Notes under the pieces: model-generated
What the model was told of the DNA's origin: nothing
Databases searched by the model: none
What the model saw: only the letters and a program-made list of their open reading frames with translations
Shown here: piece by piece, positions 9,201 through 61,188 of the stretch
How the letters are laid out: each line of letters opens with the position of its first letter
Position numbering within the stretch: position 1 is the stretch's first letter
From: Candidatus Omnitrophota bacterium
Lineage (GTDB): Bacteria; Omnitrophota; Omnitrophia; Omnitrophales; Aquincolibacteriaceae
Length of the DNA: 64,000 nucleotides
Direction: 5' to 3'
NCBI GenBank assembly: GCA_022711115.1
Contig: JAKLFP010000006.1
Span: 86,214-150,213, forward strand
Program-made: the position numbers and the translations under genes

Positions 9201-9684
9201 CGCATGGACACCTTTTCGTCTGGATACGTTCGTAATAAATACTTTCTATCTTAGGCTGGTCGCATAAATTCAAACGGGATTGTTCCGAAAAAGAAAACGG
9301 AAGCGGTGGATAAAAAACATCGCCGTCATAATTCTGATGAATCCGCGTCATATAGACCCCATCAATGAGAGAAAGTGTTTGCATGAAAAGATCCGCTCCC
9401 CCAAGGATAAAAGCCTTTTGTGTTTTGATTTGCCCAAGGGCATCTCCGAGCGTATCGAAGAATTGCGGATTGTCACCTCCTGAGGGAAGAGATTTGCTCA
9501 GAACAAAATTCTGACAATCCGGCAACGGTTTGCCGAGACCTTCATAGGTTTTGCGACCCATGATCACCGTGCTCCCAATGGTCAACTTACTGCGGTGTTC
9601 CCTGTCTTCTGGAAAACACCAAGGTATTTTCTGGTTCTTTCCGATAATATGATTTTGAGCGACCGTCACGATATGAAATAGCAT
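9193..9684 (-). CDS. folA: Dihydrofolate reductase, tandem copy 1.
   Basis: 163 aa; HIVTVAQNHIIGKNQKIPW...TVIMGRKTYEGLG...FILGGADLF is the DHFR fold pattern. Confidence 0.8.
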   Translation of the reverse strand: MLFHIVTVAQNHIIGKNQKIPWCFPEDREHRSKLTIGSTVIMGRKTYEGLGKPLPDCQNFVLSKSLPSGGDNPQFFDTLGDALGQIKTQKAFILGGADLFMQTLSLIDGVYMTRIHQNYDGDVFYPPLPFSFSEQSRLNLCDQPKIESIYYERIQTKRCPCGE

Positions 9685-9726: not shown

Positions 9727-10221
9727 TCACGCTTGTTTCTCATAAAAAACAACTTCAAGCAAGGGATCGTCCTGCAGTTTTTCCCGTGATTTTTCTTTAA
9801 AGGCAGCCGGGATTTCCGGATAAAAAACATCGCCCTGGTAATCGGCGTGAATACGGGTGAGATAAATGCCGTGGGCTCGATTAATGGAAGTCCTGTAAAG
9901 CTCCGCACCCCCAATGATAAAAGCGCGCTCGGTCTTCACATTTTTCAAAGCGTCCTCGAGCGTGGAGAAATAGGTTTGACCTGGATAGGGATTTTGACCG
10001 CTCCGATCCAAAATAAAGTTTTGACGTCCCGGCAACGCCTTGCAACCAAGGCTTTCAAATGTCTTGAGGCCCATAATCACCGTCTGGCCTGTGGTCATTT
10101 TTTTGAAATGCTGCAGATCTTTTGAAAAATGCCAGGGGAGTTGATTCCCCTTCCCAATCACTCGGTTATTCGCAACAGCCACAATATGGTAAAGCACAAA
10201 ACCTCCAAACTTTTTGACCAA
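9727..10221 (-). CDS. folA: Dihydrofolate reductase, tandem copy 2 (about 45% identical to copy 1).
   Basis: 164 aa; IVAVANNRVIGKGNQLPWHF...TVIMGLKTFESLG...FIIGGAELY. Confidence 0.8.
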   Translation of the reverse strand: MVKKFGGFVLYHIVAVANNRVIGKGNQLPWHFSKDLQHFKKMTTGQTVIMGLKTFESLGCKALPGRQNFILDRSGQNPYPGQTYFSTLEDALKNVKTERAFIIGGAELYRTSINRAHGIYLTRIHADYQGDVFYPEIPAAFKEKSREKLQDDPLLEVVFYEKQA

Positions 10222-25992: not shown

Positions 25993-28900
25993 TTACGCGC
26001 TTCTTGCCATCGCGAACTGCGCTTGGACTTCCGTCACAAGCGTATTGATGCGGTCCCCAGCAAGGGTGAGGAAATTCTTGAGCATTTTAGGCATCACCAG
26101 CATCGTATCCGGCCATTGCGCTTTCAGGGCCACGGCCAAAGGTTCGCTCGCATAGGCCAATGGCTTGAGATTTAAAGATAAAATACCGGTACTGCGCAGA
26201 CGCGCGGCTTCTATATCCAGGAGTTTTCTCGCTTCATCCAGATGATCGGCTGGAAGGATCGGCGGCCGATGGGCTTGGGCAAGCTGGATATTGATTTTTT
26301 CAAGGAAGCCGCGGTCTGCGGCATTACGTACTAATACGATAACAGGCGTATCGCCGAAAATCGGACGGATAGCCGCGATCAAGCCATGATCCAGCGCAAG
26401 TTCAGGAGCAAGGATCAAGGCATCGGAGGTGGAAATTGTTTTAATCCCAAGGGCTTTAAGCGCTTGGGTGAAACGAACTTTGTCCAGAACCTGTTGAGCC
26501 TTTTGCACCATAGAATCCGGCAAAAGCGATATGGCAAGTTCCGCCGCGTTAAAGGCATAAGCCTGAAGCGAAACAAGGCCATCAGTCAGCTTTTCCGTTA
26601 CTCCTTCGAAACCTTGCAGGTTCCCGCCACCTATTTTTCTGTTTTCCCTGATCAGGTCTTCGATAGTTTTCACGGCAACACGCTCTGGCGTAAAAGTCGT
26701 CAAAGTAACCGTAGGAAGCGGAACAGACAAAGGAACATTTCCAACAACGGCTGCTGTCATGGTGGGTGTTACCGTATGAATCGCCATGGTTTGCCGCACT
26801 TCCGAACGTGACGCCTTTCCTTTGTCTGCCTGTAATTCAGAATGGATAGGTTTAAGATGTAAAATTTGCGCATGATCCCCATCCCTGACCGGTACGCGAT
26901 GTTTCCAACCCGAAAGCAAGTTATCGCGTTCTCCATAGTTTTCCCAGGTTAACATATCCACTACTTGGTAACGGACGCCCGGGTCGATCATTCTTTCAAG
27001 ACCGTTTGTAAGTGTTGTCGATACTTTCCCGTCACCGGCTAATTCACCCTCCTGAATGCCGAAAATAATCGAGGCAAAAACCATTTGCCCAGAATCACTT
27101 TTCCTTGCGAAAACAAGAGAACTCTGATTGGAAGGATCAAAAACTGTCCATTGATGTCCTTCAGCATCGGAAAGATTGTCTCCAAAAACAGCTTTGATCT
27201 CTGTGACTGCCTTCCGAAGTTTTGAGTAATATCCCGGGTTCCAATGTGCAACTTCGGATTTTTCTAGAAGTTCCGGTCTAAAAAGAGCTATCAGGGTCAT
27301 TAAGGGCTTTATGTTTTCTCCAAAGTAATGGGCCGCATCTTTAGCCGAAAAACTGGCCATGATCGCCAATTGTTCAAAAAAGTGGTCCGACCGTACAACA
27401 CCGTCTGTTAAAGTGTACCCTCTGCCTTTTTGGCGGACGAGTTGTTTCATAAGCGCCATCGCAGAGGTTTCACGGTTTCGGATCTTTTCCGCAATATTGG
27501 CAACTTCCGGCAACTCAATGGCCTCCCATTCTTGGACTTCCACAGCGATGGGCATCGAGATCGACGCAGGAACTTCCGAAGCGACTTCATCGCTATGTTG
27601 AATGGTGTGCTTTTTCTCGTATTTGGGGTCCGAGATTCGAACAAGAGGAACATTGCCCGTTTTTCCGACCAACCCGGCAAAGATAGCCGGATCGATGGCG
27701 ATGGAAGTCCGAGACTTGAAAAGTTTCCCCCCGCTCGAGGGGACTTCTTCTCTCACAGGAGCACCTGTATTAATATTCACCTGAAGCGGTTTTCCTCCTC
27801 GTGGAGTAAAAATGAAAGATTGGATCTCGGTGCGCCGGCTCTTTAGGGGTTTGGCGGCCGGATGACCTTCAAGGTAACGCACAATATAAACAGCCCAAGG
27901 CTGATATTTGGGACTGACGTTTTGCGTCAATTCTTTTCTTAGTTTATGGGCTTCCGCGGGAGAAGCTTGCATGTAACGTTCAAACCAATCACCCGCCATA
28001 CGAAGCAACAGTTCTTCTGTCAGATCCAAAGCTTCCAAATTAAGCCGGATTCTTGTCTTTTCATCTGCCGTTTCCGCTTCCGCGGCTAATTGTCCGATCC
28101 GTTTTTTAAAGGGCTCCAATCCTGAAGAAAATTTGGTGAGGACTTGCTCGCGTAAATATCTGAAGATATCATCGTAATAAACATGATGCCGTAAGCTGTT
28201 TAAGGCTTCAACGCCGCGCGAAGAAGGGCTTCCCGTGGGCTGCCATGTTTTGATTTCTCGAAATGAACGGAACATCCCGAAAAGCCCCAAGCCTTCAGCT
28301 GAATGTTTTCGGAATCTGCTTAAACCCTCCCACACAAAATCAGGCGCCTGCACAGGAACCGCATAATCGGAAAACTGATATTGAAGCTGGCTAAATAACG
28401 CTTCCCGCTCTTCATTTTCCTTGAGCATATTTTCAAACAAATAGGCGTGCCCCATGGCCTGTCCTGTCACCATATCCACACGCCAGGCGGCCGCTACGGA
28501 TTGATACATACGTTCACGGCGGGTCGCAGGATCTTTTCTTAATGCTTTGACTGTTTTCAAGGCTTCAAAGAGACTGCGGGCCGAAGGGCGCCTCCCCCCG
28601 CCTTCCTGGCTACTTTTCTCGCTATCGTCATAGGCTACAAAAACACCGCTCAAAATCTCCCAGTCACCGCTTCTTAAACGTTCCCTCAAAATGTCCTGAG
28701 TGATCACTTTGGTGTTCGGTTCCCCTTTTTCATTCAAGACATCGATCATCGCCCCTGTTTTTCTGTCGCGGATCACCCAAACCTCGGGGTTGCTTCCGGC
28801 AAAAGGTCCGACAACTTCGCCTCCGTTGGCCATGACTTTCATCATGCTCGTGGCGGAAGCTTCCAGATCTTCATCGGACAGCATAACTCCTGCTTGGGCT

Positions 28901-31900
28901 CCTCGAAAAATAATTTGCGCTTCGTAATAGGTGTAATCTTCGAGAGTGGCTATCCGGTCTTCCAATCCGAGAAGTTCCGTCATAAAACGTATATAAAGAA
29001 AACGGTCATGCGCGTCGTCTGCAAAAGTACGCCCGCCGATCAACAGGCGAGACATGGTACGCCGCAAAACTTCAACTGCCGGCTGGTTTTTAAGACGTTC
29101 CCGAAGCCCTTCAAAATCATTTTTATAGCGTCCATGATTTTGATCCCTTCCATCTCTATACGCTTTCCAAAAAAGAAAAAGTTGATCGAAAGGCCTTGCA
29201 AAAGGGCCGGAAAATTCCACTTTAAGCCCGGCTTGAGTCACCGCTTCTTCCACTCTTCGTTTGAGCGTTTCTTCGGCTTCTACGGCTGTCATGATAGGTT
29301 TTTTTATCTTTTGGGCGGCTTCGTCTGCGGCTTTGGCAGCGGTGTCTTTCAATCTTTCTTCATATTTATCCGGACCTTTATAAGGTACCTGGCGTCTGAC
29401 ATTCGATGAAATAGGATCGCCAAGAAGCAGATCGCGGGCTTTCCCATAATTTTGTTCAAGTGTCGCCCAGTTTTCTGGTCGGTTTTCTTGAATCGCTGTC
29501 GAAAAAAGTTCCTGCATTTCTCTTAAATGTCCCGCCAGCTGCGTGTCATCTAAATGGCGTTCCGTTTGATAATCTCTAAACGTGCTCCCAAGCCAGTCGC
29601 TCGCGCCTTTGAAACCGCGTTTTTCGCGGAGCCAGATCAGAAGCTGGGCTGCATCGGCCGCGCTGACCCATTCATTTTGAATCTTGAATTGTTCGCGCAG
29701 ATCCGAATGTTTTTCAAGCTCCTGGAAAAATTGCCGGTCGTTGGCTTCTGAAGGAAGTCCGTTTTCCGGTTTTGGGATCTGAAGTTCTTGCTTAAAACGT
29801 TCGATCAAAAGCCTTCTTGCCGGAGACTGCCAACGCGGCAGAAAAACACCGTTCGTACTTCGAATACCTTTAGAAGGATCATAAAAACCTTTGACGCGAT
29901 GCCATGCGGCGCGAAAAATATTTTTTAGAAGCGCCGGTAAGTGTTCCACAAGATTGACGCCGGAAATGAGATGAAAAACCTCTGCCGTAAACCCGGCAAT
30001 ATCGATCATACCGTCATGAACCAGCGTGGAGCGCAACCATTCGGGGAATCCCAAAAGCTCGTAGTGACCTTCCCAGGCTTCAAAAAGACCCGGACGAAAA
30101 ACCGTATGGTTCAGTGTCACTCGCTTCGCACTCTTGAGATGCCGCACCGGGAGGCTCACGAACACTTCATGGTCCAGAAGAATGATGTTCTGGGGATTGT
30201 TTTGATTTTCAAGGATTTGGATCAGACGTTCGCTCGCGGCGCTGAAGAAAGCCATATCAATTTCGCGATTACCCGTATCGTCGTAAACCTCCAAAAAGGC
30301 CGGCGCTTCTTCTTGTCCATTCGGACCTTTGACATAGGCGTCCAGATAATACTGCGGTGATTTGTGAAATTGAAAATAAGTTTTGTAAACCCGGAAAGAG
30401 ACCGTTCTGGGAACTCCTCTCACGGGAAGTGTGACCTCCAAGGCAATATCGGTAGGATCTAAAAACTTTTTGATGATCTGACCGAGAAGTTTCCGCTGAT
30501 GATGATCATAACCTTTGCCGGGCTTATTTTTGATGAAGTTCCAAAGCGGATGAATCCCGGTTACATTCATCCCGAGCGCAGCCCAGGCTTCAAAAAGGTC
30601 CGGCATCAAAGCTCCAAGGCCGCCTGTCAAAGTTGTTTGGGAAGCTTCCCCTGCAGTCCAAGCGCTCATCTCCGCAGCGATTTTTTCCAGAACAGGCATC
30701 GGAAGACCGCATTCGAATTGCCGGCTATAAATATGCTGTTTATGAACTCGGGGCGTATTAACTTCGACCCACTTTGGCACCTTTTGCTCCCGCAATTCTG
30801 AACGTGGAAAAGACGGGGTTATCCCGAGTGTTTTGAAATCAATATTGATCAGGCGGGGATGGCTTAAAAAATCCAACGCGACATCCCAGGATTTCAGCGC
30901 AAGACCCGCTGCGACAAGATTTAAAACGGTCCTGCGGTACAACTCAAAATCCGGACGGTCGACAAGCTCATAAGCTTCCATGCCCTCATAGAAAGATCCA
31001 TGGCCTGCAGCGGCAAGCTTTTGGATCCCTGCCAGGAAATGGGTCTTGGTGTTTTCTTCGAAAATCTTTTTTCTGACCCAAACGATTGTTTTCCCTCTCA
31101 CACCGTAATACCAGCTTGTCTTCATATCCACTTCGACAAATTCATCTGGCTCCGACGGCCGCTCATAGGTCACAAGCCACTGAAGCATACCGGCTAAATA
31201 GTTCGGAGTAATAACGGAATGGTCTATCAAGCTTCGCACCTCGGATCGCCGGTAACGAATGGTTACTTTGGAATTGTTGATCACGGTGTTTTCCCAACCG
31301 CGGGAAGAAGCAGTGACCGATTGGGTTCCCCAGCTTACGGAAACAAACCGGTATCTATTCATATCTGAAATGCCCGCAGCCCTGATTCCGTCAGCACCTT
31401 CAAAATGATTGTCAATGAATTGCCTCACGGTCAGTCCGCGCGGCACATTGATAAAATTGATTGCGATCAGATTTGAAGCGGGCGCAGAAGGTTTCGGCAT
31501 CTCTTGTTGTTTAGGCGCCGGCGGAAGTATTCCCATAATCTTCGCCGCCATTGCTTCCCCGGCAGCTTTCGCTTTTGTTTCATCCGCCACAGTTAAAGGT
31601 ATTTCTTTTTGAACTGGTTCGACGGGTGTTGTTTTTACCGTTGGCACAGACGGTGTATTCCGGGAAGATAGCGCGGCAGCTTCTTCGGTTTTGGACAAAG
31701 CTTGTATGACAAAATGGAGCTCATTCGTCCACGGGTGATCAGGTCGACGGTCTAAAATAGTAAGCGCTTGGATCCGATGGAGAGGATAATGCTCAGGCTG
31801 GTCTCGAAGCATACGGCGCACCGCTTCAGCAATACGTTCCGGAGCTTCGCCCATGCCCACATGATGCACAAGCTTGCGATTGCTATAGCTTGTATCCGTG

Positions 31901-34900
31901 GACGTTTCAAAACTAATCTCATCAATCCTCATCTTCACCTGGAACATAAGCCGATACACAGCATCCCGGACCTCAGAAGGCGTACGTGCAAACACCTCCA
32001 TAGACTTGGATTCTGCTAATGTTTCCGAAACCTTTTTTGGGCTAATTTTCTCTGAAACAGTCATCACGTCGATCTTCTGCCCGATTTGAAACTCGGGTTT
32101 AGGCGCGACAGTCGGTTGAAGTGTGAGCGTGATCTCGCCTTTGTTGTTCTCGGCAGTCAATAAGAACCATCCGTATATTTCTTGGTGGGATGGCACATTC
32201 GCGAAAAAGTCGTTGCCCGTATCGTTCCAAAATGCTGAGGATTGAATCCGGCGACCTGCGCTTTGATAAATAACTTCAATGGCGTGGTCCCGCGCGATAT
32301 TCCACCGATCACCGATTTGGCGCAATGCGTCGGAAATCCGGTCAAATGTCAGCGGTTCAGAGGTCCACGTGTCTTTAGACGGAGCATAAGAAACGCTTAC
32401 AATGCGGTTCGCGTTATAACCGGTTGAACCGGCTTTCTCTTGGATATAAAGCGTCCCGCCTATCAATGCCTCGAATTTTCCTTCGTAAACAGTTCCATCC
32501 TGCATGGAAAGCTTCAACATCGTCCCCAAAGCGACATTTCCCGCTTGAGCATCCGTTTTAAATTGCGCGAACGGGACTTTGGCAAGCAACGTTTCCGCTA
32601 TGTTTTTGGCCATCCCTTCCGGCTTTGGTTGCTCTTCACCGCGCACTTCCGAGCGTTTGGAATCCACATAGGTTAGTGAGGGAGAGAGACGATCATCGGC
32701 AAAATGCAGCCAAAAAATTTCGCCTTTCTGAATAAGAATATCTCGCCATTCCATCGGACGGCTATAAGCATAACGCTGGCCTTTGCTAGAAACCTCTGCA
32801 CCGACCAGGGCCTTATCACTGAGCGAACGAAGACGGATAAGAGATTCCATCAGATCCGCGAGAGACGATTTCTTTAACGCCTTGACTTTTATGAGTGCTT
32901 CCGAGCCATGGATTATCTGGACAGCCTGCTGCGAAGCGCTAAGCCCGGAACCCGGACTCACTAGGCTTCTCAATTCCGAGCGGGACTCGGCGATGAGGAA
33001 GGAATCGCCGGCTCCGGCAATTTCGAAAGTTTTCAAATCCGGATTCAGAAAAGAGCGCCGGAACGCTTCGCCCAAGGACATCCGTCCCGCACTATCCAAT
33101 TCAATAAAAATGGCCCTGCGATGAATTTGATCCATATAGTCTCTTGCCGCAACCGGATCTTGAGGCGTTGTTTGCTCAACCATTTGCTGCCATGCTGTCG
33201 AAGGATAAACCCGCAAGGCTTTGCCTGCCTTTTCCGATACAGCGATAAGTTGAGTCTCCTCTCCTAACATGGTTCGGAAAGGTGCGGGAAGTTGGATCCT
33301 ATTTTTATCATCCACCTTGAAGGTATAAGAGCTGGTGAAGATCACCGGCGCCCGCACTTCAGAGCGGGAAATCACGGGTAAGAGACCTTTATATTTAAGA
33401 TCAGGTCTTTGTATGCCAAGAGAAAAATTTGAACTGCCATCCGCGTACCGGATCACCCATGGTTTTTCGGTTTTGCTTTGGGCTTCCAGCAGTTCAGAAA
33501 GCGATGGTAACTTCACCGGTTGGCCGTTCTTGAACCATTCCAAAACTCGGTTTTGCTGCGACGTATAGCCCAATTTTTTTGCTAGGGTCTCGCGAAGCGC
33601 TTGGGAATCCATGAACTTCATGGGCCAAGGAGCTTTAAGATCAGGCGGGAACCTTGGATTGGTGCGAATCCCGTATACTTGTTTAATTTCACCATCCTGG
33701 GTGATAAAAATTGCCTGGAGAGGGAAACGGCCGTCAAAGCTGCTTCGTAATTGGTCACCGTCAAAAAACCTGGTTTTAAACCGGCCAAAGTGAACGGAAA
33801 TGTTTTTGGCGCCGGTCCGATAAACGAGTTCATGGTCAGGTCCAAGATAAAATCCTTCGAATTCCGGGCTTCTCGGGTCCTGCGTTCCGTTGAACGCGAC
33901 AACTCCCTGCTCAACCGGCTGCTGATACTTCTGCGCCAAATCGAACAGGATTTGTTCTCCTTCAAAATAAGTGACATACGGATCAAGCGCCTGCGCGAGG
34001 TCCCTGTCCCCGAAAAGATTGCCGACGATTTTGACCGTAACGGGTTGCACTGCCTTTGCCCCTTCCGCTTGAGCAAGGCTGATGATCTCGATGCTGTTCG
34101 GATCCTTCGCAGGTTTAAAATCCACGCCCTCGATCAAATAAAGTTTGTCGCGCCAGGCCTGAAGCTGGCTAATCAATTCATTGATAGTGATCTGCGGTCC
34201 GGTTAATGGTTTCAACGTAATCCTCGATTGCCCGATCTGTATCCACCTTGTCGGGCTCGTCACGGACCGGCTGTAAAGAACTTGGGTTTCCGGTAACGCA
34301 ATGGCCGGTTCGGGTTTCTGTTCAACGGGTTCTGTTTTCTTGACTTCTTCTACAGGGGCTTGCGCTGTCTGAACCGGGGTCTTGGGAGAAGCAAATCCCT
34401 GCCGTTGCTGAGCCGCTTTCTCACGGAGTTCTTGCTCTTTCTGAGCTACTTTTGACACCCTGACATCCCACTGCCCGCTACGGCGGGCGTCGTCTTTATT
34501 CATTCGCACTTCAGAGCGGGAGGTAAGCTCGACAATTTGGACGGTAAGTCTTTTCATTTTCTCTTCAGCGGAAGTATTGAGTAATCGATAGGCCGTAAAC
34601 GGTCCCGCAAGCATTTCCGTCACTTCTTGAAAGCCATATTGCCTGACCTTCGGAATAGCGTAATTGAATTCCACAACCGTGACAGTTTGAGAAGCGCTAT
34701 CGACTTTAGCGATCACTCTTTTCCATGAAATGGAGCCGAGATTGGAATTGTCGATGCGCCAATCCTTAGAGATCAACACGCTATTTTCTAAAGTATCGAA
34801 GTCCCCTGCCGAGGTTTGAGAAGTGATCCTGCCGCTTGCCGTATTATTTTCAAGGAGCTTCAGAAGATCGCCATACGGGATGAATCTAACTTCCCCTTCC

Positions 34901-37900
34901 GCTTGCGAAATAACAAGATAAGATTTGTATGCGTCGTGTTCTTGTTCTGCGACAAAAAAGCTAAGATCGCCTGTGGTTTCATCTTTTTGGAAGTCAAGGA
35001 TCCGTTTCCCGGCAAGGAATGTTTCGATTTCTTTTTGAAGTTCCGCGGCAGAACGCCCATTCGCGGCCTCAAATTCAACCTGCCGTTCACCTTGCTTCAC
35101 GATTAATTTTTGTCCGGATTGTTCAATGATAATTGCCGGCGGCGCTGAGTAAGGCCCACCCCACGGAATGCGTCCTTTTCGGGACAGGCTGCGTACTTCC
35201 GAGCGCAACGCAGGTTTTTCCTGCGGTAATTTTCCCAAAACCGCTCTGGCCGCATCATGAACAAGGCTTTTTCCTTTTTCATCAAGACGATTTCCTGAAA
35301 CAAGCTGCTGGACAACATTGGTCACACGGGCATTTACAAAATCGATGAGATCCTGGACCGTCAAACCTGAAAATTCATAATAGGCCGGTTTGCTTTTGGC
35401 CTGCAAGGCGGCTTCATCCGTTTTTGTGATTTCGATGCCGAATCTTTCTTCGAGAGACTGCATCAGACTCATTTCATCCAGGGAATCCATGCCGAGATCT
35501 TCTACTAACCGATCCGTCAGACGAATTTCTTCCTCGATCGCGGGAGGTAAAACCTCTTTTAAAATATCGATGACCTCTTGATCAATATTTTCACTCACCG
35601 TTCCCCGCATTTCCGAGCGACTGGCCTTTCTTCTTTCATTGATGGCGTGCTGAAAGGCATTCGAAAGTATTTTGTAGGGATTTTGCGAATAAAAATAATT
35701 TTGCCACAACCAATGCGCCAGACCTGAAATCCCGATAAAAATCATGCTAAACGCAACCACGCGGGGGATCTGTTCCTCCGCCGGCAAGAAGAATGTTGCC
35801 GTCCCGATAAGAGGAAATATAATCCCCACCAGGACCTTCATAAAAGCACTGCTCCGTCGGAATTGGAGTTCAGCAAGAAAAGAGGTGGGGTTACCGTTTT
35901 CCGCTTTTTTGTAATTGTCGGCATATCGGTTTTTCATTTTTTCCCACAATTGTTCTAAGCGGTCTAAGGTTATCCGGTTTTTACTATTTGATCGGAGATA
36001 TGCTCTGACCGATTCATCAAGAGAGCGCAATTCAGACCTTGCTTCCGTAAAGAGAACAGGATTGATTAAGTCATGGCTTAAATTAAGGGCATCATATTTC
36101 AAAGCTTTTTTTTGCTGTAAAAGTTGAATGCTTTTTGAAGGAATAGTTCGAAACTCAATACGATCAAACTCTGGGACTGTTTCTGTCCTGACGTTTTTGG
36201 TCGGTTTGATGCCCATGGAAGATATCCAGCCTTCAAAGGTTGTTTCCCCTGCTTCTTCCTGAAAGAAGTAAAAACGAAGTTTGAACGGCCCTTGAACAAT
36301 GTCCTCGGGTCCCAATTCGCGGGACCGGATGGTCCCGGCAGCCCCCGCTAACCATGAAAACCACACAAGATGGGAAAATTGTGTCCTTGGCAAATGTTCG
36401 TGGTGGGAATTATAAAGTTTATCGGGAAGTGCGAGATAGTGCTGTACCGCCTTACGGTTCTTAAACAACGTGATCATAAGACCTAAGGATCCTTGCTCAT
36501 CACCTTCAAAGTCATGGGCATCCAACCGAAGCTCCCGCTCCCATCCGATGCCTCCATTTCTCATATTCCAAACAAGCGGTTGGTGGACCAGATCCGACAG
36601 TTTGAATAAAGGTCCCTGAACAGCCCGTACTTCGGAACGAGTTTCCAGCTTCCTTGGCATAAAGAAATTTCCCGCATCGTCCTTCGAATCCCCCATAGAA
36701 AGCTGCTCGATGCCTTTAAAAACTTCGGCAAAAAACTTTTTTGCTTCGGCCTGTCTTATAGATTTTGAAGCGATAGAAAATTCCACTGTGATATCACGGC
36801 CATAGCTATTCAGCATCGCCTGCGTGTGATAGTTCAAGCCTAAAAGGGTCATCTCGTCCCACGACAAAAGATTAAATCTCTGTCCGTCGCTGCGAATAAT
36901 GGCTGCTTGAAAACTCTTGTCTTGAACAAGATATTTTCTTTCGAGAAGATGTTTGGTTCTGGCGGTAGGCGCCGTGTGAAGCCCGAGAGCGTTTCCGATG
37001 CTGTATTTCTTTGCCGCGATCCAGCGATCTCCTATTTTTGTCAGCTTAAAATCAGTTTTTCTTAATTCGGAGCGCTGATCGTTCATGTAATTCGGCTTGC
37101 GGGTCACCGGAAAAGCAGGCTCGGCGGTTTTTCGGGCATATGCAAGCAGGTATTTCTGCATTTTTTCGTATTTTGTACCGACGTTGATCGGGCCTTCGAT
37201 CCCACGGATGGGCTCCGTCAGTGTGAATCCCGCGGCCCGAAGAAGTGTTTCGAAATAACTCGGCGTGACAGTAAAGACCCAGCCATTGAGAAGTCGATCG
37301 CCGCTTAATTTTTGATTTTTAGGCTTGAAGATATTTCCCCCCGGGGCCCATCGGACAAAAAGAGGCGCGTCTTTTTCGAGAAGGTCCCTGAGCGAAAGTA
37401 ATGCGTTTAGCTGTTCTTCGGGCGAAAAATAAAGGAGCACATCGCTGATAAAAATCCCTCCGAAAGTTTTCCCGTTGAAATCAGCCGTTCGGAAATCGGC
37501 GGTCATGAACCTGTCTTTAGACATGTCCCCGAAAGAGGGATCTTCGAGAGCGGCTTTGATAAGCGACGGCGAGATGTCCGTTCCCCAAAGGTCGGTAAAT
37601 CCCTGTTCCTTAAATTTCTTGAGCGCCCTTCCGATGCCCATACCCACATCAAGAATGCTTTTATCCTTGCCGGCCATCAACGCCAGGAACTGATCGATCG
37701 TTTCTTGATGCGGAGAAACGTTCCAATCGCGGAGCTTATGGCGTTCAAAATCAAGGGAGAATTCATCATCCGTCCAGTACCGGACATTGCTGATCGCCGG
37801 GTCGGGGGGTGATTTTCTGAAGGTTTCTACCGCCGCCTGGAATTCCGGAGAAGTTTCCATCAGCGTTGCCAAAACCCGGGCAAATTCCGGATGATGTCTT

Positions 37901-49900: not shown

Positions 49901-52900
49901 ACTTGCTGTTTGATCTTTTCCTTAATCTCAAACGCTATTCGTTTTTTCGCCCCGGGATCTTTTTCTGCCTTGTATTTGAGCCACATGTCCCGCGTATCCA
50001 CAAACGCGATGTCCACGTTCACGCCGCCGAACCACTTCAGCAAAATCCTTTTCCCTTCCGATACCGCGCGCATCACGGCCGGCCACTGCAGTCCGATCCC
50101 AAGCACCGCGGAAGCGTCCGAAAAAATCACGATCTTTCTTTTTTGAGCCGGGAAAGACAAAGGCTTTTTGCCGTAAAGCGGCGTTTCAAGGTCCAGGCCT
50201 TTTTTCAGCGCGTCCGCGATCGCTTCACAAACGGCTCCCACGCCGGGGGTATAAACCGTCTTCATCGCTTCGATCACATCGACCGGGACAATGCCGTGCT
50301 TAAAAAATATGTCGATGAGTTTTTTGTAAGTCTGATATTCCGATGGGATCGCCGCCGGCAAGCTGTCCTCAGATGTCTCCCGAACTTCAGACCGGGGTCT
50401 GCTTTCCATACTAACCGCTACTTTGCAATTATTTGTGTCGGCCCGGGTCCTTACGCGGACATTTTCCCATCCCAATCGGGTAAGGTTTTTGAATGGAATA
50501 TCAAAGACAACCCAAGTTGTCCGATTTGAATCTACAATAAGCGAAGCTTCTTCTATCAATGCGTGGATATCTCCGTAGATATCAGCAGGCCTTTTCCCGG
50601 AAGGATCCACGTATAACCGCATAGGGATCCGGATCCGATCGTCCGGCTCAATGAGTTCGACTTGAAGTTGTTTGTGATCCTTAAAGAAGGATTGCTTAAC
50701 AAAAATATTGACGGCTTTGTCGTTTGTTTCGACGAAACCCGGAACCAAAAGGCTGATATCCTGTGCGGGTAAATGCCATTGGGGGCCTATGAAATCTCCC
50801 AGCGGCTCCCGAAAACTCCATGCCGTCAGCGCAAGAATTAACAACGCCATAGCCATACTTAGGTTTAAGAAAATAGCCCGTGAACTTAGGTTTGGATTCC
50901 ACCAGCGCCTTATCTGGGTGTCTGTGCGTGAAGCTTCTGGGATGGCAGCAACAGAACCGCCTTTCGGGGGCATGGTTCGTATTTCGGAACGGCGTCCAAA
51001 AGCTTTGGTAAGCGCTTCGGCAAGGGCTTTCGGATTGTCCCATGGAGCAAGATGTAATGAGGAATCTTTTTTGGGGTTTTTAAAAACAATTTTTTTCTGG
51101 AAAGGTTCAAGGCTTCGTTTTTCTCCTGACTGTATGACAGACACTTGTTTTGAGTTCAATCCAAGCGCCCGCTGTAATGTTAAAACAAGGTCTTCCGGAC
51201 TTTGCACAAAATCCAACGGGGCCATGTCAATGCCCACCCAAATACCGTTTCCAGCCTGATGAAAAGTTACCTCATACCCAAGTACTTTTGCCGTCTCACC
51301 CCGCATTTCGGAACGGCCCAGGTTTTGGCTTGGATCTGTTCTACCATTTGCGCGCTGATGAACGTTGATGATCGTTTGGGCGATCTCCATGGAGTTCATA
51401 ACAAAACCGTCTTTCATCACCGGTTTTACATTTTCGGTAACAAACTCCGAGGGACCCTGAGCGTAAACAAGCAACTGGCCGTCTTCGCTCTCAATAACAT
51501 GAATCCCATTCGGCAATGTCCTTCCCATACCTTGGATCAATCCTGCGAGCTGTTTTGCCGAGAAAACCGTGGTGTAATCACCGATGACCGCCGCAAGAGA
51601 TGTCGGATCTTTCCGGCTAGCGGCCCTCACTTCAGCCCGTTGAATGGCAGCAATTGCATTTTTTGCACTTAGGTGAACGGATGGATCTGAATCATTCAGC
51701 GCTGAGTAGAGCGCTGAAAGCGCTGGTTGGGCCTGGGGACCAATTTCCCCAAGTGTGATAATGGTCTGCTCACGAATCTCCGGAGAAGGGTCCCTCAATT
51801 GGGGCATTAACTGCCAAACTGCATCGCCCGCCTCAGAACCCAAGGCGCCAATAGCGGCAATGGCCTTTAAACGCACCTCTTTTTCCGGGTCGCCGATTAA
51901 ATGAAGCCAATCACTCACATTTTTCGGCATAGCCGTTTCAGACGTACTCCTCATTTCAGAGCGATTGTCCGCGGGATGTTTTCCTTCGAAGTGTGATGGT
52001 TTTTTGACAAAGGTGACTTTAGCGGTTGTCCCTTTAGGATAAGGATGTTTCAGGGTTTCGGGATTTTTTAAATCAACTGCTTTATGGCCGGGAGATGGAA
52101 TGATGCTGGCAATGTATTCACCGCCGCCTAGATTTTCACGTACCTCAACGGCTCGCTTGATAGCCTTGAGCGTCATGGTTGCCTCAAGTTTATAGATTTT
52201 AAAATGAAGGGCGTCGTCAGCTTTCACTTCCGTTAGCCCTTTGACCTTCGTCCTCATCTCGGACCTGGCAGAACGGCTTTTCAGGGTATCTATTTTTCTT
52301 TGACCCTCTTGATCTTCCGGTTGGATATAGCGGTGCAGAAAATGCCAAAGAAGAGATTCAGGAGTGAGAAGCGACTGGTCCCAAACCGGCATGTCTTTAA
52401 AAATCGTCTTGAATCGTTTCAGGACGTTGAATACAAAATCATTCTGCTTTCTCTGGAATTGCTGGGCATAGGCGATTTCGATTAACGGCCCCAAAAAACG
52501 GTTAAGAAACGGCAGTTCATAAGCAAGTTGTGTATTAATGGAACGATGCGCTTTTTTCATGGTTTTAAAGCTACGTTCCGTTTCTTCGAATCTCATCTTT
52601 TGCCATCTCCGGATCACCTCGGCAACCGTATGCTCCGGTCCCACCACCAAACTTGCGAGGATATCCCGCATCAAGCGGATGTCATAACCTGTCAGGATAT
52701 TATTGCCGTAAAGCAGCATATCAGGACTTGTATAAAGAAAGATCCCATAATGTGTTTCTTCAGGTTTCAAAACGGCCAACAACTCATCACTCAAAGCTTC
52801 AACCCCTGTCACAATCAAGGTCTCGTCCGGCGCAAGCTGCAAAAGCTGTTTTTCTCCTCGGTCGTCTTTAACGCGGATTTTCTTCCCGTCCAAAGCATTA

Positions 52901-55900
52901 CGGACATCCCACGGATTGGCAAATTCAAGGTCCAAATGTTTCAGCTTAAGACCTGCTTGAGCGAGCATTTCAGAGAGCTCTTCGGTGATTCCATGTTTGC
53001 CCGAAGCGCGCATGCCACCGATCAAGATCACCTTGGGTTTTTTCTCAAGGATCTCACGGATAACCTCCTCGGTCTGTTGCTTTTTGGATCGATCCACCTT
53101 TTCGACCAATGCTTTTCTTTCCTCTTCGGTTTTGATCGCTCGAAGTTCGTCGAGAGTTTCGGGCAGAAGTTCCAGGCTCATGCCTTCAAGGTCATAAGGT
53201 TTTTGGCCCTCAAGTTTTTTCGCCCATGCTTCGGGATGGCGCGCCAATTCCGCATTCATAATACGGATGACGGCCAAAATAAAGGCTGCTTTTCGAAGAC
53301 TTATTTTTTTCGCGTCGGCAATACGAACAACATTGTTAAAAGCGCTGATAATTTTATCTTCCATAATGCGGTTCACGGCATCTTCCGGCCATTGTTCACG
53401 AACAAGGTTCTGCCGCCATTCCAGGTAAGAAACGATCACGCCGCCCGCATTGGCAACCACATCCGGAACAACGATGACACCTTTTTGCTTCAAAATTCCG
53501 TCGGTTTCCTTGTTTTTGATCGGTCCGTTGGCTGCTTCAATCACCAATTTGACCCGGAGCAAACGGGCAATGCGTTCATCAATGGTATTTTCGAGTGCGG
53601 CAGGCACTAGGGTATGAACCTCGCTGGCCCAAAATTCTTCCTCGGAGATCACTTTCACTTCTTCGGGGTATTCTTTTGCATAATCCAAAATGGTTTTCCT
53701 GGGAAGCATGTTGCCGGCCGCGTCTTTCCTGGGTGCCAGGAATTCCAGAATCTTGGGAATGTTCAAACGTTCACCGGTTTTGGTCGCAATAGCGCCTTCT
53801 TTTTCTTTCACGGCCATAATCCTTGCTCCATTTTCATGAAAGATTTGCGCGCCATGCCCGCCCACATTGCCGAGTCCTTCAAACGCAACGGTTTGTTTTT
53901 CTATCTCTGTCCCGATGCCGAGCCGGGCTCCAAAAACTTTGACTGCTTCGCGCCAGACAAAAAACACCCCACGGCCTGTTGCTGCAGTCCGACCATGTGA
54001 ACCGCCTTTTTTCTCGGGCTTGGCGGTCACCACAGCAATGGGAGATCCTTCTACCATTGGAATTTTATGCTTTTCAGGATTTGCTAAATACGCGTCTAAA
54101 TAGGGTGTGTCGACATCTTTGGAATTGCTTAGTTTCCACCGAAATTCGATTGTTTTTTTGAATAATTTGTCATGCTTAATCTTTAAAAATTCATCTGCCA
54201 TCCATGCCATTTCCTTTTCTCCAGTGCCGACATCCGGAGCCGGAATATCATTCAAAGGACCGATCGCATCGGCATCTTTGGCAAGCAAAGCCTTCACATA
54301 ACCTCGAGTCAATCGTGCGAGCTCGCCTTCTGAAAGCTCGCGCGGATTCACGGCAATGCCTCCCTTGCCCCCTCCGTAAGGAAGCCCTGTGATGGCATTT
54401 TTGATGCTCATCCACATGGAAAGAGCCTGCACATCCTCAAGATCGACATTCGATTTATAGCGCACACCGCCTTTTCCCGCCCCCCGCGCATCATTGTGAT
54501 AGACGCGATAGCCTTTAAAGATCTTTGTGGTGCCATTATCCATACGCACCGGAATATTTACTTCAAGGATACGATAAAAGCTGAGGAGCCATTCAAGAAG
54601 TTGGGGATCAAGGTGGATCAGCTCTGCGACCTCCGAAACCTGACGCTTTGCATTATCAAGGGCCACCTGACCTTCGGATGCTTTTGCCTGTGCTTCTTTT
54701 TCTGCTCGCACTTCGGACCGTCCTTCAAGTTGGCCGGGCATGTCGGCCATCAAAATTCCCTCGTCATCTGACAGCAACGTCTGCTGACCGCCAGGCGCTA
54801 CATAGCGCGACACCGGCCTGCTGAGTTTTTTTCCTCCGCTGAAATTCAGGAAAGCGATCGGTTTCCGGTTGAATTTTTCAGAAAGTTTGGAAGCCCAAAA
54901 ATCAGCGCTAAACTGATCCGTTCCGGCCACTACCAAAATCTGGTCTGCTTCTGATAATTCGTTAAATAACCTGTCGGGAGGTGAAGTGATGTCGATGGCC
55001 CATTCACTCTCATTGCAGATGAGCAGTGCCAGTTTGAATTTTTGATTCAATAAAATGATTCGCGATTCTTGGTTATGAGCGTATTTCTTGAATTCTGTTT
55101 TTTGAACTCGACCCGTTCCATCGGAAAGGAAAAAGACATAGAAAGCCCTTAAGTACTCCAGCCCTTCGGGAGGGATCCTCTCCAAACCGTAGCCGACCGA
55201 AATTCCAAGACGCCGGACCGTTTCTGAGAGAATTCTTTCTCTTTCTTTTTCGCGTTCCGGAGTGTAGCTGTTCCAACCCACAACTTCATCCGGGCTTTCA
55301 GGGAAAACAACAAGATCGGGGGCATTTGTTCCGAATTTATCTTTGAGCCCTTGCAGAATCCCCGCCATTCTGGCTGTGCTCGCATCAAAATCATTTTCCT
55401 TCATTTGGACCCAAGCGATCCTTGGAGCGTCACTTTTTGCCTTTTCGTCAAGCCACACAATCTGTGCGGGTAACGCTTCTTCTTTTTTTCTCACTTCGGA
55501 ACGAGAAGAAACTTCGGGCGGCTGTTCTTCAAAAAGAAGATCAAGGGCCAACTGACCTTCTTGACCATAACCTTTCTGCCGAAACAGATCTTCTAAGCGA
55601 GGGCGTTGTACGAGGTCGCTGAAATCCGCATCTTCGGAAATTTGGTCTTGTATGGTCTTGCGAAGCAATTCCAGAATCCTTCCCGCGGATGAATAATCAG
55701 AACCACGTTGAGTCTTACGAATAAGAGAATCTGTTAACGCCGTAAAAATATTAGCGAGAAAAATAGTGTCTCGAGCTTCCTGAGAGATATTGGCAGGAAC
55801 ACGGCTGGCTGGTTTTTGATCCTGCATTTTTGCCCTCGCAATAGCACTTTGAATCCAGTCCATGACCGTTTTCTTGGTTTTGTTTTCAGTCCTCACTTCA

Positions 55901-58900
55901 GAACGAACTGTGGCAGAAACCGTCATCTTTTCAAGAAGCTTTTGAGGTACAGGACGGCCCTCCTCAAAAAAATTGGCTGTCGCCCAATCATAAATGGCAC
56001 CCCCTACGGATTTTTGGGCTTGGAAAAAGTTTTCTTCTTTATTGCCGGGAAATTTTGATAACGTTTCGCCGGCTACCTTTAAAAACTCACTTTCAAGAAA
56101 TGTTTGCATCTCCTTTTTTCGCTTGGATAAATCCTGAAAAAATTTTCTTTCTTCTGCACTTGCGGTTTCTTCTATGTTTTTGGGGCGTTCAAGGAGTCTT
56201 TCGATAAAAAGCTTGGCGTAGAATTGCGCCATTTCGAGGTTAATCTTGTCCCATTTTAAATTTTTAAGCTCTTCGAGGGCTTTCTGCGCTTGCTGCCCCG
56301 CCGTCGTCAAAGCATCTTTTTTGGATAGGGCCAATTTTTGCCAATATTCGGAAGGCATACTCGCGATCATTTCGGGCGTTAGGTCATCCGCGCGAGTTGC
56401 GTTTTTGATTTTTTCCCAAGCAGCTTCGTTTTGTGCTAGGAATGCAGCTTCAGCTTCTCTTTTTTCAGCTTCAACGGCTTCCAGCTCTTCGATCTCCTTG
56501 TTTGTCACATCGAGTAAGAGGCGGCTCTTTTTCTCTAGAGCTTTTTGTTTTAACTCAGGAGTCGGCAACGCTTCGATGATTTCTTTTGTGATTTCTCCTG
56601 GCTCTGTTGCGTTCTGAACTACGGTGAGAGCATTCTTTACAGCCTGTCGCTTATTTTGCTCAACAACGCGCATGTAGTCTGTTTGAACCTGACCCATTTG
56701 CTTTGCTGTCCTGGTTTCTCCTTCTTGCATCAGTTTGGCTGTCGCTAATGCCTTTTTTTTAGCCCTTGCTAATTCCTGCCAATATCCGGATGGCATCCTT
56801 GCGATCATGGCTGGGGTGATGCTTTTGCTGCTTGTGGCTGTCCGGATGGTTTCCCAAACTTTTTTATTTTTTTCTGCTTGGACATCACCGGATCTCCGGA
56901 CTTCAGCTTCTTCAGATTCCATCTTCGAAATTTCCGCAGCTGTTATCTCCGAGAAAAGACGGCTTTTTGTCGCGATGGCTTCCTGTTTCAACGCCTGCGT
57001 CGGCAGTGCGTCGATAATTTCTTGCGTGATTTCTCCGGGCTCCATGGCACGCCGCACTACTTCTAAGGCATTTTGGATGATTTGCCGATCGTGCGCCTGA
57101 AGTTCGCGAGTCTGTTGCTCAAGCAAGGCTGTCTGACGAGCTTCACCGGCCGCTATGACTTTCCCCCATGACAATTGAGAAGCTTTTATTGCCGCTTTTT
57201 GGGCCTTTTGAACAGCAGCTTCTTTTGCAGCTTTTTCATCGGCCTTTTTCTTCGGTAAGGCAGCTCCCTGGGCAAGTTTCGACTTTTGAGCTGCTTCTTT
57301 GGATTTCTGAGTTTCTTGTTTCTCCCTTTCTTTTTGTTCCTTGGCCAACAAAGTAGCTATCTTCAAGGCTTCTGCCTTTTGAGCCGCCTCCTTGGCTTTT
57401 TGAGCCGCTTTTTCTTCCTCTTCTCTTTGTTTTTTTTCTAAAGCAGCTATTTTCGCAGCTTCTGATTTTTGAGCTGCTCTTTCTTCTTTTTCTTTTTCCT
57501 TTTTTTCAAGAGCGGCTAATTGGGCTTCGGACAAGCTTGGCTTTGCCGGTCGCGAAGTAATAATCTTTGGCTCTCTCCTTTGAGCCCGTTCAACCAAATA
57601 AGTTTTAAGAACCTCGCTTTCGGGATACATCTGCTGCAACTGGGTCATGGCACCATGGATCTGCTCCATGGTTCCCGTTTTTTGGATCTGGCGCACGCGG
57701 GCTTCTACTGCATTCCGAACGGTTTGAATATACATGTCCCTGTCACGCCGCTGCCTTTGTTTGATCTGTTGCAGATCCAAAAGTTTTTCGGCTGTCTTTT
57801 TTAAATCAGGATGTTTCGCGACCCACTGAGCCAATGCTTCTTGGAAGCGCCGGCCAATAAACACATTTCTTTTGCCAAAAAAAACATCCGCATTCCCTTT
57901 CCCATAGATTTGATTGATCTTCCGTCCGATACTTGTTGTTTCGATGACGCGCAGTTCGTTGGCGAGTATTTCAAGAGGAACGGGCATATTTTTGAATTGC
58001 GGGTTTCCATAATCGCGGATTCTTTTCAAAGCGCTATCCACTAATTCTGTGAAATCTTTATTTTCACTCGGAAGATGCAGTCCCCAAACTCCCATCTCCC
58101 TGAAATCCACTTCAAAACGGTGGATCGTGGAAGCTACAATCCCCGTTGTTTTTTCAAGGGCTTCCTTCAAACGAAGAAGCGTCAGCTTTTGATCTTTCGC
58201 GAGTTCTTTTTCGAGGTCTTCGACAGTCTTTATCACGGTATCGAACGTCAGCGTGACATGGCCGAGATTGACCTTTGTTTCCTTTGCTTTCTTTGCTCTT
58301 ACCTCGGAGCGAGAATGCGAAAGAAAAAGTTCCTGGATAGCCGACTTCTGATAATTCATGTCGGCGGGCCAGTCCTTTCCAAGAACGCCGTGGGCCCATT
58401 CGTGAAGATCCGCAAGAATATCCAAGAAAAATGCTTCTTTGGGATGGAGATCCGCAAGCTCGTGCGCGTAACCGATAATAGAAAACCGTTTGAGTGAATC
58501 AAGAAAAGTCAGTGCGCCATGAAAATTTGTATCCGCCGTACCGGCCTCAAGCGCCAAAAAAAGATCTTCCGATTCCTGGATCAATCGCTCAAGAAGTGGC
58601 CGCCAAATTTGATGCGCGGGAGTAGAGCTCGAGAGATTCCATTGTTGCAGGACCTTTACAAGTCGATTGTTGGTCCGGTCTAAAAGGCTCTTCAGCTCCT
58701 TGATGGATTTTTCATCCGCAGGCGAAAAAGAAATATTCCTGGAAAAAACAACCCCATAGAAATTTTTATCCGGTATCGGAGAAATCCCAGGGACATGCTG
58801 CCTGGTGAACATATCCAATGCCTCAAGCCATAAACCTGAAAGCTGATAATAAACTGCTCCAAAATGCGCCAAAAGCACGTCACCCTCTTTGGCATTCCCT

Positions 58901-61080: not shown

Positions 61081-61188
61081 GAAATAGGTTGTCTTTCCTT
61101 ATTTCCGATCTGGATCTTTAGGTATGAGAAAACTCGCTGAAAGCGTAACATATTTTTTTATAATTTCAAGTTCTTGAAAAAGGATTTA

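Follow-up and report, generated by a model that had tools for sequence, protein, structure and literature searches.

A 64,000-nucleotide (nt) stretch of contig JAKLFP010000006.1 from a Candidatus Omnitrophota bacterium, referred to below as the window, contains a single open reading frame (ORF) of 11,695 amino acids (aa), which begins with an ATG at 61080 and occupies 25993..61080 on the minus strand without an internal stop. Thirty-three times along this giant ORF the pentapeptide R-S-E-hydrophobic-R recurs in frame, and the observations support selection acting on that peptide. The reading favoured here, at a probability of about 0.55, is that R-[S/A]-E-x-R peptides are the protease processing sites of a bacterial polyprotein. 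The layout of the ORF is that of a head, then some 33-35 unrelated cargo units and finally a conserved tail. Since it comprises at least 10 thousand aa (kaa) in one ORF and is tiled by many distinct Pfam families of which none is dominant, it is a member of the Omnitrophota 'multi-enzyme' class of giant proteins.

Junctions and their distribution

A first-pass annotation of the window had listed 33 junctions at 26794..59202, and all are present there, in frame with one ORF. It left the strand unstated. The motif is on the minus strand, the quoted 15-mers being the reverse complement of the plus strand; a plus-strand reading is rejected, as these 15-mers are minus-strand codons absent from the plus strand, which translates to PNF*A and similar. 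Position 4 is Val at 17 junctions, Met at 7, Leu at 5, Ile at 2 and Ala at 2 (codons GTG, ATG, GTA, TTG, GTT, ATA, GCG and TTA), and every RSE tripeptide in the giant ORF has xR after it. Composition alone predicts 0.23 occurrences of RSE.R against the 33 observed, and shuffling the protein 2000 times produced 0.24 on average and never more than 3, which rules out chance or composition as their source. Internal tandem repeats are likewise rejected: junction spacing is irregular, from 96 to 1332 aa, and the segments are unrelated, only units 16b, 17, 19 and 21 being paralogous. A second giant ORF at 1..6942 has three further in-frame copies, which close the following list.

59188..59202 (-): junction 1, RSEVR, between head and unit 2
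58297..58311 (-): junction 2, RSEVR
55891..55905 (-): junction 3, RSEVR
55489..55503 (-): junction 4, RSEVR
54706..54720 (-): junction 5, RSEVR, ahead of the glutamate dehydrogenase unit
52252..52266 (-): junction 6, RSEMR
51949..51963 (-): junction 7, RSEMR, ahead of the HEAT-repeat unit
51625..51639 (-): RAEVR within the HEAT unit, the family's Ser-to-Ala junction variant
51301..51315 (-): junction 8, RSEMR
50977..50991 (-): junction 9, RSEIR
50380..50394 (-): junction 10, RSEVR, ahead of the malic-enzyme unit
48652..48666 (-): junction 11, RSEVR, ahead of the UDP-glucose pyrophosphorylase and epimerase unit
45568..45582 (-): junction 12, RSEAR
44647..44661 (-): junction 13, RSELR; a transmembrane-like segment begins 9 aa downstream
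44215..44229 (-): junction 14, RSEMR
43768..43782 (-): junction 15, RSEMR, ahead of the inositol monophosphatase unit
42829..42843 (-): degenerate junction, RFEVR (Ser to Phe), immediately before the signal-peptide unit 16b, a paralogue of units 17, 19 and 21
41983..41997 (-): junction 16, RSEVR, then a signal-peptide-like N-terminus
40468..40482 (-): junction 17, RSEAR
40180..40194 (-): junction 18, RSEMR, then a signal-peptide-like N-terminus
39391..39405 (-): junction 19, RSEVR
38746..38760 (-): junction 20, RSEVR, then Met and a signal-peptide-like N-terminus
37897..37911 (-): junction 21, RSEIR, ahead of the S-adenosylmethionine (SAM) methyltransferase unit
37060..37074 (-): junction 22, RSELR
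36625..36639 (-): junction 23, RSEVR
36025..36039 (-): junction 24, RSELR
35605..35619 (-): junction 25, RSEMR, ahead of the acyl-carrier-protein unit
35191..35205 (-): junction 26, RSEVR
34504..34518 (-): junction 27, RSEVR
33352..33366 (-): junction 28, RSEVR, ahead of the MraZ-like unit
32968..32982 (-): junction 29, RSELR
32641..32655 (-): junction 30, RSEVR
31234..31248 (-): junction 31, RSEVR
30790..30804 (-): junction 32, RSELR, ahead of a 1327-aa unit with weak, sub-threshold glycosyltransferase-5/phosphorylase Pfam matches; kept in homologues from at least 7 other genomes
26794..26808 (-): junction 33, RSEVR, ahead of the tail unit
5008..5022 (-): second giant ORF, RSEIR
3769..3783 (-): second giant ORF, RSEVR
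1426..1440 (-): second giant ORF, RSELR

Because of the two near-motif sites in the list the true number of junctions in the giant may be 34-35: RFEVR at 42829..42843 (-) looks like a junction in which Ser has mutated to Phe, and RAEVR at 51625..51639 (-) is possibly a 34th.

Conservation of the peptide

The first-pass annotation held that the junctions are conserved at the amino-acid and not the DNA level. A per-position analysis of the information content of the 33 15-mers and their flanks does reveal codon periodicity. Codon positions 1 and 2 of the four invariant residues carry 1.3-2.1 bits and the third positions of Arg and Ser 0.28-0.45 bits, with 1.13 bits at the third position of Glu because only GAA and GAG encode it. 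The flanks are at noise, not exceeding 0.43 bits per nucleotide and 0.86 bits per residue. For 1242 unique instances pooled from the family of proteins that share the head they do not exceed 0.27 bits per residue, there being a mild preference for Ser, Ala and Pro upstream and for Thr or Ser at +1. The degenerate DNA pattern is found 33 times in frame 0, not once in either of the remaining sense frames, and a single time in antisense orientation. Its restriction to one sense frame, with third positions near background and flanks at noise, bears out the earlier dismissal of a dispersed nucleotide repeat, a miniature inverted-repeat transposable element or an att site. RNA structure had also been argued against, rightly so: by minimum free energy, junction windows of 75 and 135 nt do not exceed random windows of the ORF in folding stability (p = 0.32 and 0.48), and the junctions have no Rfam match.

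The codons themselves are TCC, TCG, TCT or TCA for Ser, GAA or GAG for Glu, CGT, CGC, CGG, CGA or AGG for the first Arg (Arg1) and any of the six Arg codons for the last (Arg5), as previously listed except that Arg1 is never AGA. The weight then placed on a 'two-base difference' between CGN and AGR was misplaced, as CGR to AGR is a one-base synonymous step. TCN versus AGY for Ser is a stronger test: AGY is used at 0 of the 33 junctions in the window and for 25 of 289 Ser in relatives, which also sometimes have Ala at position 2. The contrary case, nucleotide identity with peptide divergence, is the opposite of what was found. RSE.R or RAE.R is kept with different codons before the same modules elsewhere, and homologous junctions differ at up to 5 synonymous sites, TTG versus CTA included; before one shared module the sequence is CGT TCA GAA TTG CGG here and CGC TCT GAG CTA CGA in a relative (L015). 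Nor is position 4 a re-initiation codon, again as proposed, ATG, GTG and TTG together accounting for only ~30% of family instances. Selection on the peptide R-S-E-hydrophobic-R is supported by these observations.

'Not at the DNA level' is nevertheless slightly too strong, as selection acts mainly on the peptide and a codon bias remains. When junction codons are pooled over loci L004-L082, CGY accounts for Arg1 in 79% of motifs and in 51% of other Arg-Ser contexts (p = 4e-16); for Ser, AGY stands at 8% versus 35% in matched context (p = 2e-24) and TCC at 49% versus 21%; and Arg5, unlike Arg1, leans to CGG and AGG. Local dipeptide context is rejected as the cause since the bias persists against matched Arg-Ser and Ser-Glu contexts. 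The shortage of AGY is explicable by descent, because passage from TCN to AGY needs a non-Ser intermediate.

An out-of-frame 15-mer at 61097..61111 (-), AGATCGGAAATAAGG, would encode RSEIR. It is 17 nt upstream of the ATG of the giant, with an overlap of what is likely the ribosome-binding region. In 78 related loci no upstream copy was found, so this one is probably due to chance, and it is rejected as an mRNA-level signal.

Cargo units

Division of the giant ORF at its junctions gives 34 segments, in which Pfam assigns the following.

Segment 6: glutamate dehydrogenase (ELFV_dehydrog)
Segment 8: HEAT repeats
Segment 11: malic enzyme
Segment 12: UDP-glucose pyrophosphorylase (UDPGP) and NAD-epimerase (Epimerase)
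Segment 16: inositol monophosphatase (Inositol_P)
Segment 22: SAM methyltransferase (Methyltransf)
Segment 26: acyl carrier protein (PP-binding)
Segment 29: MraZ
Segment 33: glycosyltransferase-5 (Glyco_transf_5) or phosphorylase-like, weak and below the Pfam cut-off

The other 25 of the 34 segments have no Pfam match. Where comparison can be made, the start of a segment is close to the natural N-terminus of the protein it resembles. Residue 18 of the glutamate dehydrogenase segment aligns to residues 6-9 of solved chains of that enzyme, residue 8 of the acyl carrier protein segment to chain residue 3, and position 1 of the MraZ Pfam model to segment residue 4. Units 17, 19 and 21 start with near-identical signal-peptide-like sequences, and a fourth paralogue, 16b, sits right after RFEVR. 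More generally, a hydrophobic 15-mer begins within 25 aa after 9.0% of 1225 family junctions versus 2.0% of control positions (p = 5e-15), and such 15-mers are almost absent immediately upstream of junctions. A relic start Met after junctions is not enriched (2.4% versus 1.9%).

The behaviour of the units as modules can be judged from BLAST high-scoring segment pairs (HSPs) outside the head between this giant and 230 relatives (n=65, with a tolerance of 15 aa). Twenty-six of the 65 start at a segment start, where random placement gives 6.0 (maximum 13), and 35 end at a segment end versus 5.9 at random. Only three span a junction, the random figure being 41.6 (minimum 33). Module order differs between giants. 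From natural N-termini, signal peptides of their own and module shuffling, the units are best read as independent proteins and the motif as the mark of module boundaries.

Within ~37912..42828 (-), units 16b, 17, 19 and 21 have the common start SK[LI]..GLL.LGLQ.QSALAQ, and in three of the four (16b, 17 and 21) the block ILMSIRKGPATNQ comes next. By their sequences these units appear to be a local duplication of a secreted module inside the giant gene.

Head, tail and the wider family

The two ends of the giant ORF are as follows.

60979..61080 (-): N-terminal signal-peptide or membrane-anchor-like segment, MGYFKKLKRLLSSIVVITFSITNTISPSSVSYAQ, as read from the translation
59401..61080 (-): head domain, aa 1 to ~560, with motifs HIQDAH, LLEG and TGGFH, from sequence and predicted fold
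25996..26793 (-): tail unit, from homology to the C-termini of family proteins

A search with the head among 1.84 billion representatives gave 6374 relatives at E <= 1e-3 and 637 at E <= 1e-30, nearly all with the head as the first ~550 residues of a protein of 1-8 kaa. GTDB species representatives contain at least 549 head relatives, several genomes having more than one paralogue; these were found with alignment A2, a scan with the single protein having given none and alignment A1 being too divergent. Among the GTDB matches listed, all that bear a taxon name are Candidatus Omnitrophota/Omnitrophica or of the genera Omnitrophus and Taenariivivens, and ~30 are titled 'uncultured bacterium'.

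Ranked by over-representation among gapped pentapeptides in 160 family proteins (450 kaa), RSE.R comes first, with 716 occurrences observed versus 10 expected, and RAE.R second with 197 versus 15; the two occur together within single proteins. Seventy-one genomic giant ORFs have 1.87 motifs per kaa, the ordinary ORFs at the same loci 0.033. Certain lineages have other peptides at junction positions. RPESR is present 12 times in one (L006), LSDSR 11 times in another (L030), and [AG]ASLG[TDE] is found in P0101, P0155 and P0129, in the first of them 12 times beginning at residue 605, right after the head. Three of the variants, RAE.R, RPESR and LSDSR, retain [E/D]-x-R. In L064 an LG.GVR.GK tandem repeat is present in place of junction peptides.

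At least 28 family proteins end in a homologue of the tail, the last ~230 aa of the giant. The alignment always runs to the final residue, with the consensus ...[RKH]SA-COOH (here ...ARSA-COOH), and in most of 15 members checked there is a junction within 40 aa of the tail start. An AlphaFold2 (AF2) model of the tail is confident (predicted local distance difference test, pLDDT, 81) and has a generic Rossmann-like fold, for which no functional match was found. Complete family members are from 1164 to 7248 aa long. Conserved head, junctions and tail make up what may be called a grammar: head, n cargo units, tail.

Cys is scarce throughout. There are 5 in the 11,695 aa of the giant, 1 in 2325 aa of the second giant and 0 in the 725 aa of a stand-alone head paralogue in the window, against 0.83% for 20 neighbouring ORFs. 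Over the family as a whole Cys makes up 0.10%, compared with 1.15% for ordinary ORFs at the same loci, a depletion of ~10-fold, which suggests that the chains are exported unfolded or function under oxidising conditions.

Distant relatives encode the head separately, as a gene of ~590 aa with 21-27 nt between it and a giant gene downstream, or a small gene that is followed by a giant, so that what is elsewhere the head-cargo boundary is there a true gene boundary. Two loci illustrate this.

L083, 2207..3988 and 4009..: separate head and next gene
L084, 1056..2825 and 3219..: separate head and next gene

The giant gene of L083/L084 has its own signal peptide and low Cys and is without RSE.R. 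As judged from gene order, the separate upstream head gene links heads and giants functionally. In the closest metagenomic relative (L001) a head gene of 582 aa, 721..2469, runs into the beginning of a second gene, of at least 4765 aa (2441..) and in another frame, and this downstream frame has 11 RSE.R motifs; the overlap is probably an assembly frameshift in one giant ORF.

Proposed processing and its alternatives

What would processing entail? A site-specific endopeptidase would recognize R-[S/A]-E-x-R and cut the chain into units, most likely after the last Arg, with Glu then being P3 and a small residue at P1'. This placement is based on the persistence of Arg, and of an acidic residue two before it, in RPESR and LSDSR, and on the next residue being small. 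The cargo released would include glutamate dehydrogenase, malic enzyme, sugar-nucleotide enzymes, inositol monophosphatase, methyltransferase, acyl carrier protein, MraZ-like and HEAT units, units with signal peptides and many units of unknown function. The candidate for the cutting enzyme is the head, and since the first junction follows the GGFH motif closely (at 55-440 aa, mostly within 330 aa, with one outlier at 736 aa) the head itself would be released.

Two site-specific endopeptidases, TIKI and RRSP, belong to the Tiki/TraB/erythromycin-esterase superfamily. The best structural matches of an AF2 model of the head (pLDDT 76; predicted template modelling score 0.69) are to the Tiki/TraB/erythromycin-esterase/ChaN/RRSP superfamily, with weak Foldseek support. 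HIQxAH, xxEG ([LF]xEG) and TGGFH are conserved in 178-213 of 225 heads, and by sequence and model the conserved His, Glu and His are at the C-terminal ends of parallel strands; in this arrangement of two His-containing motifs and a conserved Glu the head resembles the superfamily. Sequence comparison yields less. Profile search of the head against PDB sequences gave no match at E <= 10, there is no significant sequence-profile match to the Tiki/TraB/EreA/ChaN superfamily, and one homologue only has a weak ChaN/Tiki Pfam match (E = 0.028 to PF04187). The head also carries an all-helical insertion of ~300 residues. With this moderate support the head is the best candidate for a protease encoded in the gene itself.

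Several points weigh against processing. Support for cutting comes from sequence, from which we infer the cutting, the scissile bond, the enzyme and the cell compartment alike. A recognizable protease Pfam domain is absent from the 34 segments of this giant and from six small complete relatives. Head-bearing giants without a detectable junction motif exist (L064, L055), as do the separate-head lineages L083 and L084 without it, from which it follows that the role of the head is not tied to RSE.R alone. The preference for CGY at Arg1 and for TCC is unexplained by a signal that is purely at the peptide level. Finally, positive charges before the hydrophobic stretch of the head suggest that it faces outside the cytoplasm, while many of the cargo units are classical cytoplasmic enzymes, which gives conflicting indications of the compartment in which cutting would occur.

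A signal-anchored head, a conserved tail and Cys depletion do suggest that the chain leaves the cytoplasm. A more ambitious version of the processing proposal, possible but tentative and in our judgement the less likely outcome, is that giants are true cellular polyproteins, each exported by the Sec route as one chain, cut by the Tiki-like head and its units released to the cell exterior, or to the interior or surface of a host or prey cell. Each giant would then be equivalent to an operon whose translation gives one polypeptide of 1 to >10 kaa. This polypeptide would be threaded through to the outside with the help of a Sec-type signal, and cutting at R-[S/A]-E-x-R or its lineage equivalent would free dozens of nearly Cys-free enzymes and secreted proteins.

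Might the chain instead stay whole? The motif could be an uncleaved linker or docking sequence, bound by a partner such as a chaperone or a secretion or assembly factor, or acting as folding punctuation, in a giant that is one multi-enzyme, multi-pass membrane scaffold. Cutting is after all a deduction, head and tail bookends could export or anchor one intact chain, and the flanks are rich in Ser, Pro and Ala as is often so in linkers; published work, moreover, treats giants as single membrane-associated polypeptides with many transmembrane helices (10.64898/2026.06.07.730766). However, passive linkers do not normally have four invariant residues over 1242 instances together with information-free flanks, and the swapping of the entire motif in some lineages (RPESR, LSDSR, ASLG) fits co-evolution of an enzyme with its site. 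Signal-peptide-like sequences directly after junctions, together with natural N-termini, are best explained by N-termini that are freed. An intact scaffold, or docking of a partner that is not a protease, is on this balance unlikely, if still to be taken seriously.

Two further explanations place the origin of the motif at the level of nucleic acid. In one, the 15 nt CGY-TCC-GAR-NTN-MGN are an RNase site or a site of ribosome pausing, drop-off or restart, with the peptide a by-product. The codon bias beyond amino-acid choice (Arg1 CGY, Ser TCC, few AGY), the complete lack of AGY Ser in the window and the extra 15-mer upstream of the ATG are what it has in its favour, and each has its answer: AGY shortage can be due to descent, the upstream copy is confined to this locus among those compared, and relatives show Ser as AGY, Arg as AGR, Ala in place of Ser and position-4 codons of all kinds, only ~30% of which are of start type. 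With third positions near background, synonymous divergence between homologous junctions, no out-of-frame copies on the sense strand, no folding excess and no Rfam match, we regard such a signal as improbable. In the other the motif is a scar, the translated footprint of a cassette joint kept by descent and not by present function. Modules have indeed been shuffled between giants with breakpoints at junctions, and the Ser codon, being TCN in most cases, is what common descent of the junctions would lead one to expect. A non-functional scar would, however, decay as the flanks have done, and yet four residues are invariant among genomes with just 30% identity between their heads; neither homologous nor site-specific recombination could be guided by as few as fifteen degenerate bases, and Pfam scans of the window gave no recombinase or repeat signature. 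Of a bare scar we are very sceptical indeed.

Two forms of peptide-level autonomy are rejected. The consensus of 2A/StopGo peptides is a conserved tract of ~18 aa ending in D(V/I)ExNPGP; here only 5 residues are conserved, there is no NPGP and the flanks have at most 0.27 bits. Serine-dependent self-cleavage, whether pyruvoyl-type or by N-O acyl shift, requires a nucleophilic Ser, Thr or Cys at the scissile bond inside a folded domain, and does not accord with replacement of Ser by Ala or Pro (RAE.R, RPESR) at junctions that look functional, in a context that is not conserved.

Comparison with known systems

Giant ORFs of Omnitrophota, up to 147 kaa, have been described since 2022 and their nature called 'poorly understood' (PMC10066038). 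West-Roberts et al. stated that the cleavage points of giants are unknown (10.1101/2023.11.21.568195), and the multi-enzyme content of giants clashes with a secreted or membrane topology (10.64898/2026.06.07.730766). The present ORF resembles the multi-enzyme giants of these two preprints in exceeding 10 kaa, in having starch-synthase-like, methyltransferase, HEAT and sugar metabolism families, and in its N-terminal signal sequence and scattered transmembrane segments. Neither preprint reports a junction motif, a conserved head or tail, or Cys depletion, the word 'cysteine' being absent from both. In the library searched, literature searches for RSEVR, RSEMR, RSELR or RSExR in the sense of junctions found nothing, as did those for polyproteins or cleavage sites in Omnitrophota or bacteria, and for Tiki or Cys depletion with Omnitrophota.

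In functional terms the arrangement resembles viral polyproteins and MARTX toxins, and yet it belongs with neither. As with the substrates of picornavirus 3C, potyvirus NIa-Pro and coronavirus Mpro, one ORF contains many independent proteins, with a short conserved boundary peptide, variable flanks, a site that varies with lineage and a candidate protease in the same chain. In contrast to those polyproteins, the giant is encoded on a cellular chromosome with housekeeping genes on either side, exceeds the largest viral polyproteins 4-5 times in length, has metabolic and secreted cargo and has a candidate protease that is Tiki/EreA-like instead of chymotrypsin- or papain-like, and its cutting is putative. 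MARTX processing is after Leu and is driven by an InsP6-activated CPD domain. In the 34 segments of the giant, by contrast, there is no Pfam match to RTX repeats or to a C80 cysteine protease, and in the toxins RRSP is cargo and not the processing enzyme.

The head is like TIKI, PrgY and ChaN in its signal or anchor and in its expected orientation, facing away from the cytoplasm. It differs from the TIKI/TraB/PrgY/erythromycin esterase/ChaN superfamily in its negligible sequence similarity, the best Pfam E being that already given, and in its helical insertion. Kexin/furin prohormone and neuropeptide precursors share with the giant repeated Arg sites between units, with a last Arg as the likely P1. 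Convertase sites are dibasic (K/R-R), unlike the invariant Glu two before the last Arg here, and Pfam finds no S8 domain in the giant ORF.

The closest description that these comparisons allow may be that of a polyprotein with conserved processing sites in a cellular setting without precedent. The junction peptide supplies candidate cleavage points for giants and makes the open question about giant genes directly testable, and splitting giants at junctions makes structure prediction and annotation feasible. With it comes a grammar of head, cargo and tail that includes a candidate processing enzyme and a depletion of Cys pointing to export of the whole chain. Were cutting to be confirmed, it would be the first large-scale polyprotein strategy in cellular organisms, with a new pair of site-specific protease and recognition site. 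Were export also true, it would amount to a bacterial strategy for gene expression and protein delivery without described precedent, and would explain the longest known genes in these ultra-small bacteria.

Other features of the window

The window carries three head-domain copies, those of the two giants and one that stands alone.

1..6942 (-): second giant ORF of the same family, with ATG at 6942 and extending past the left edge of the window; the heads of the two giants share 31% identity
61396..63573 (+): stand-alone head-domain paralogue of 725 aa, divergently transcribed, with 0 Cys and without the junction motif

Beside a thymidylate synthase gene, the ORF at 9193..9684 (-) is dihydrofolate reductase (DHFR) by Pfam, and the first residues of the adjoining ORF at 9727..10221 (-) are DHFR-like as read from sequence. 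Near the giants are ORFs for SOD, transketolase, GGT, an ABC transporter and a menaquinone gene as well as those of DHFR type, an ordinary chromosomal context.

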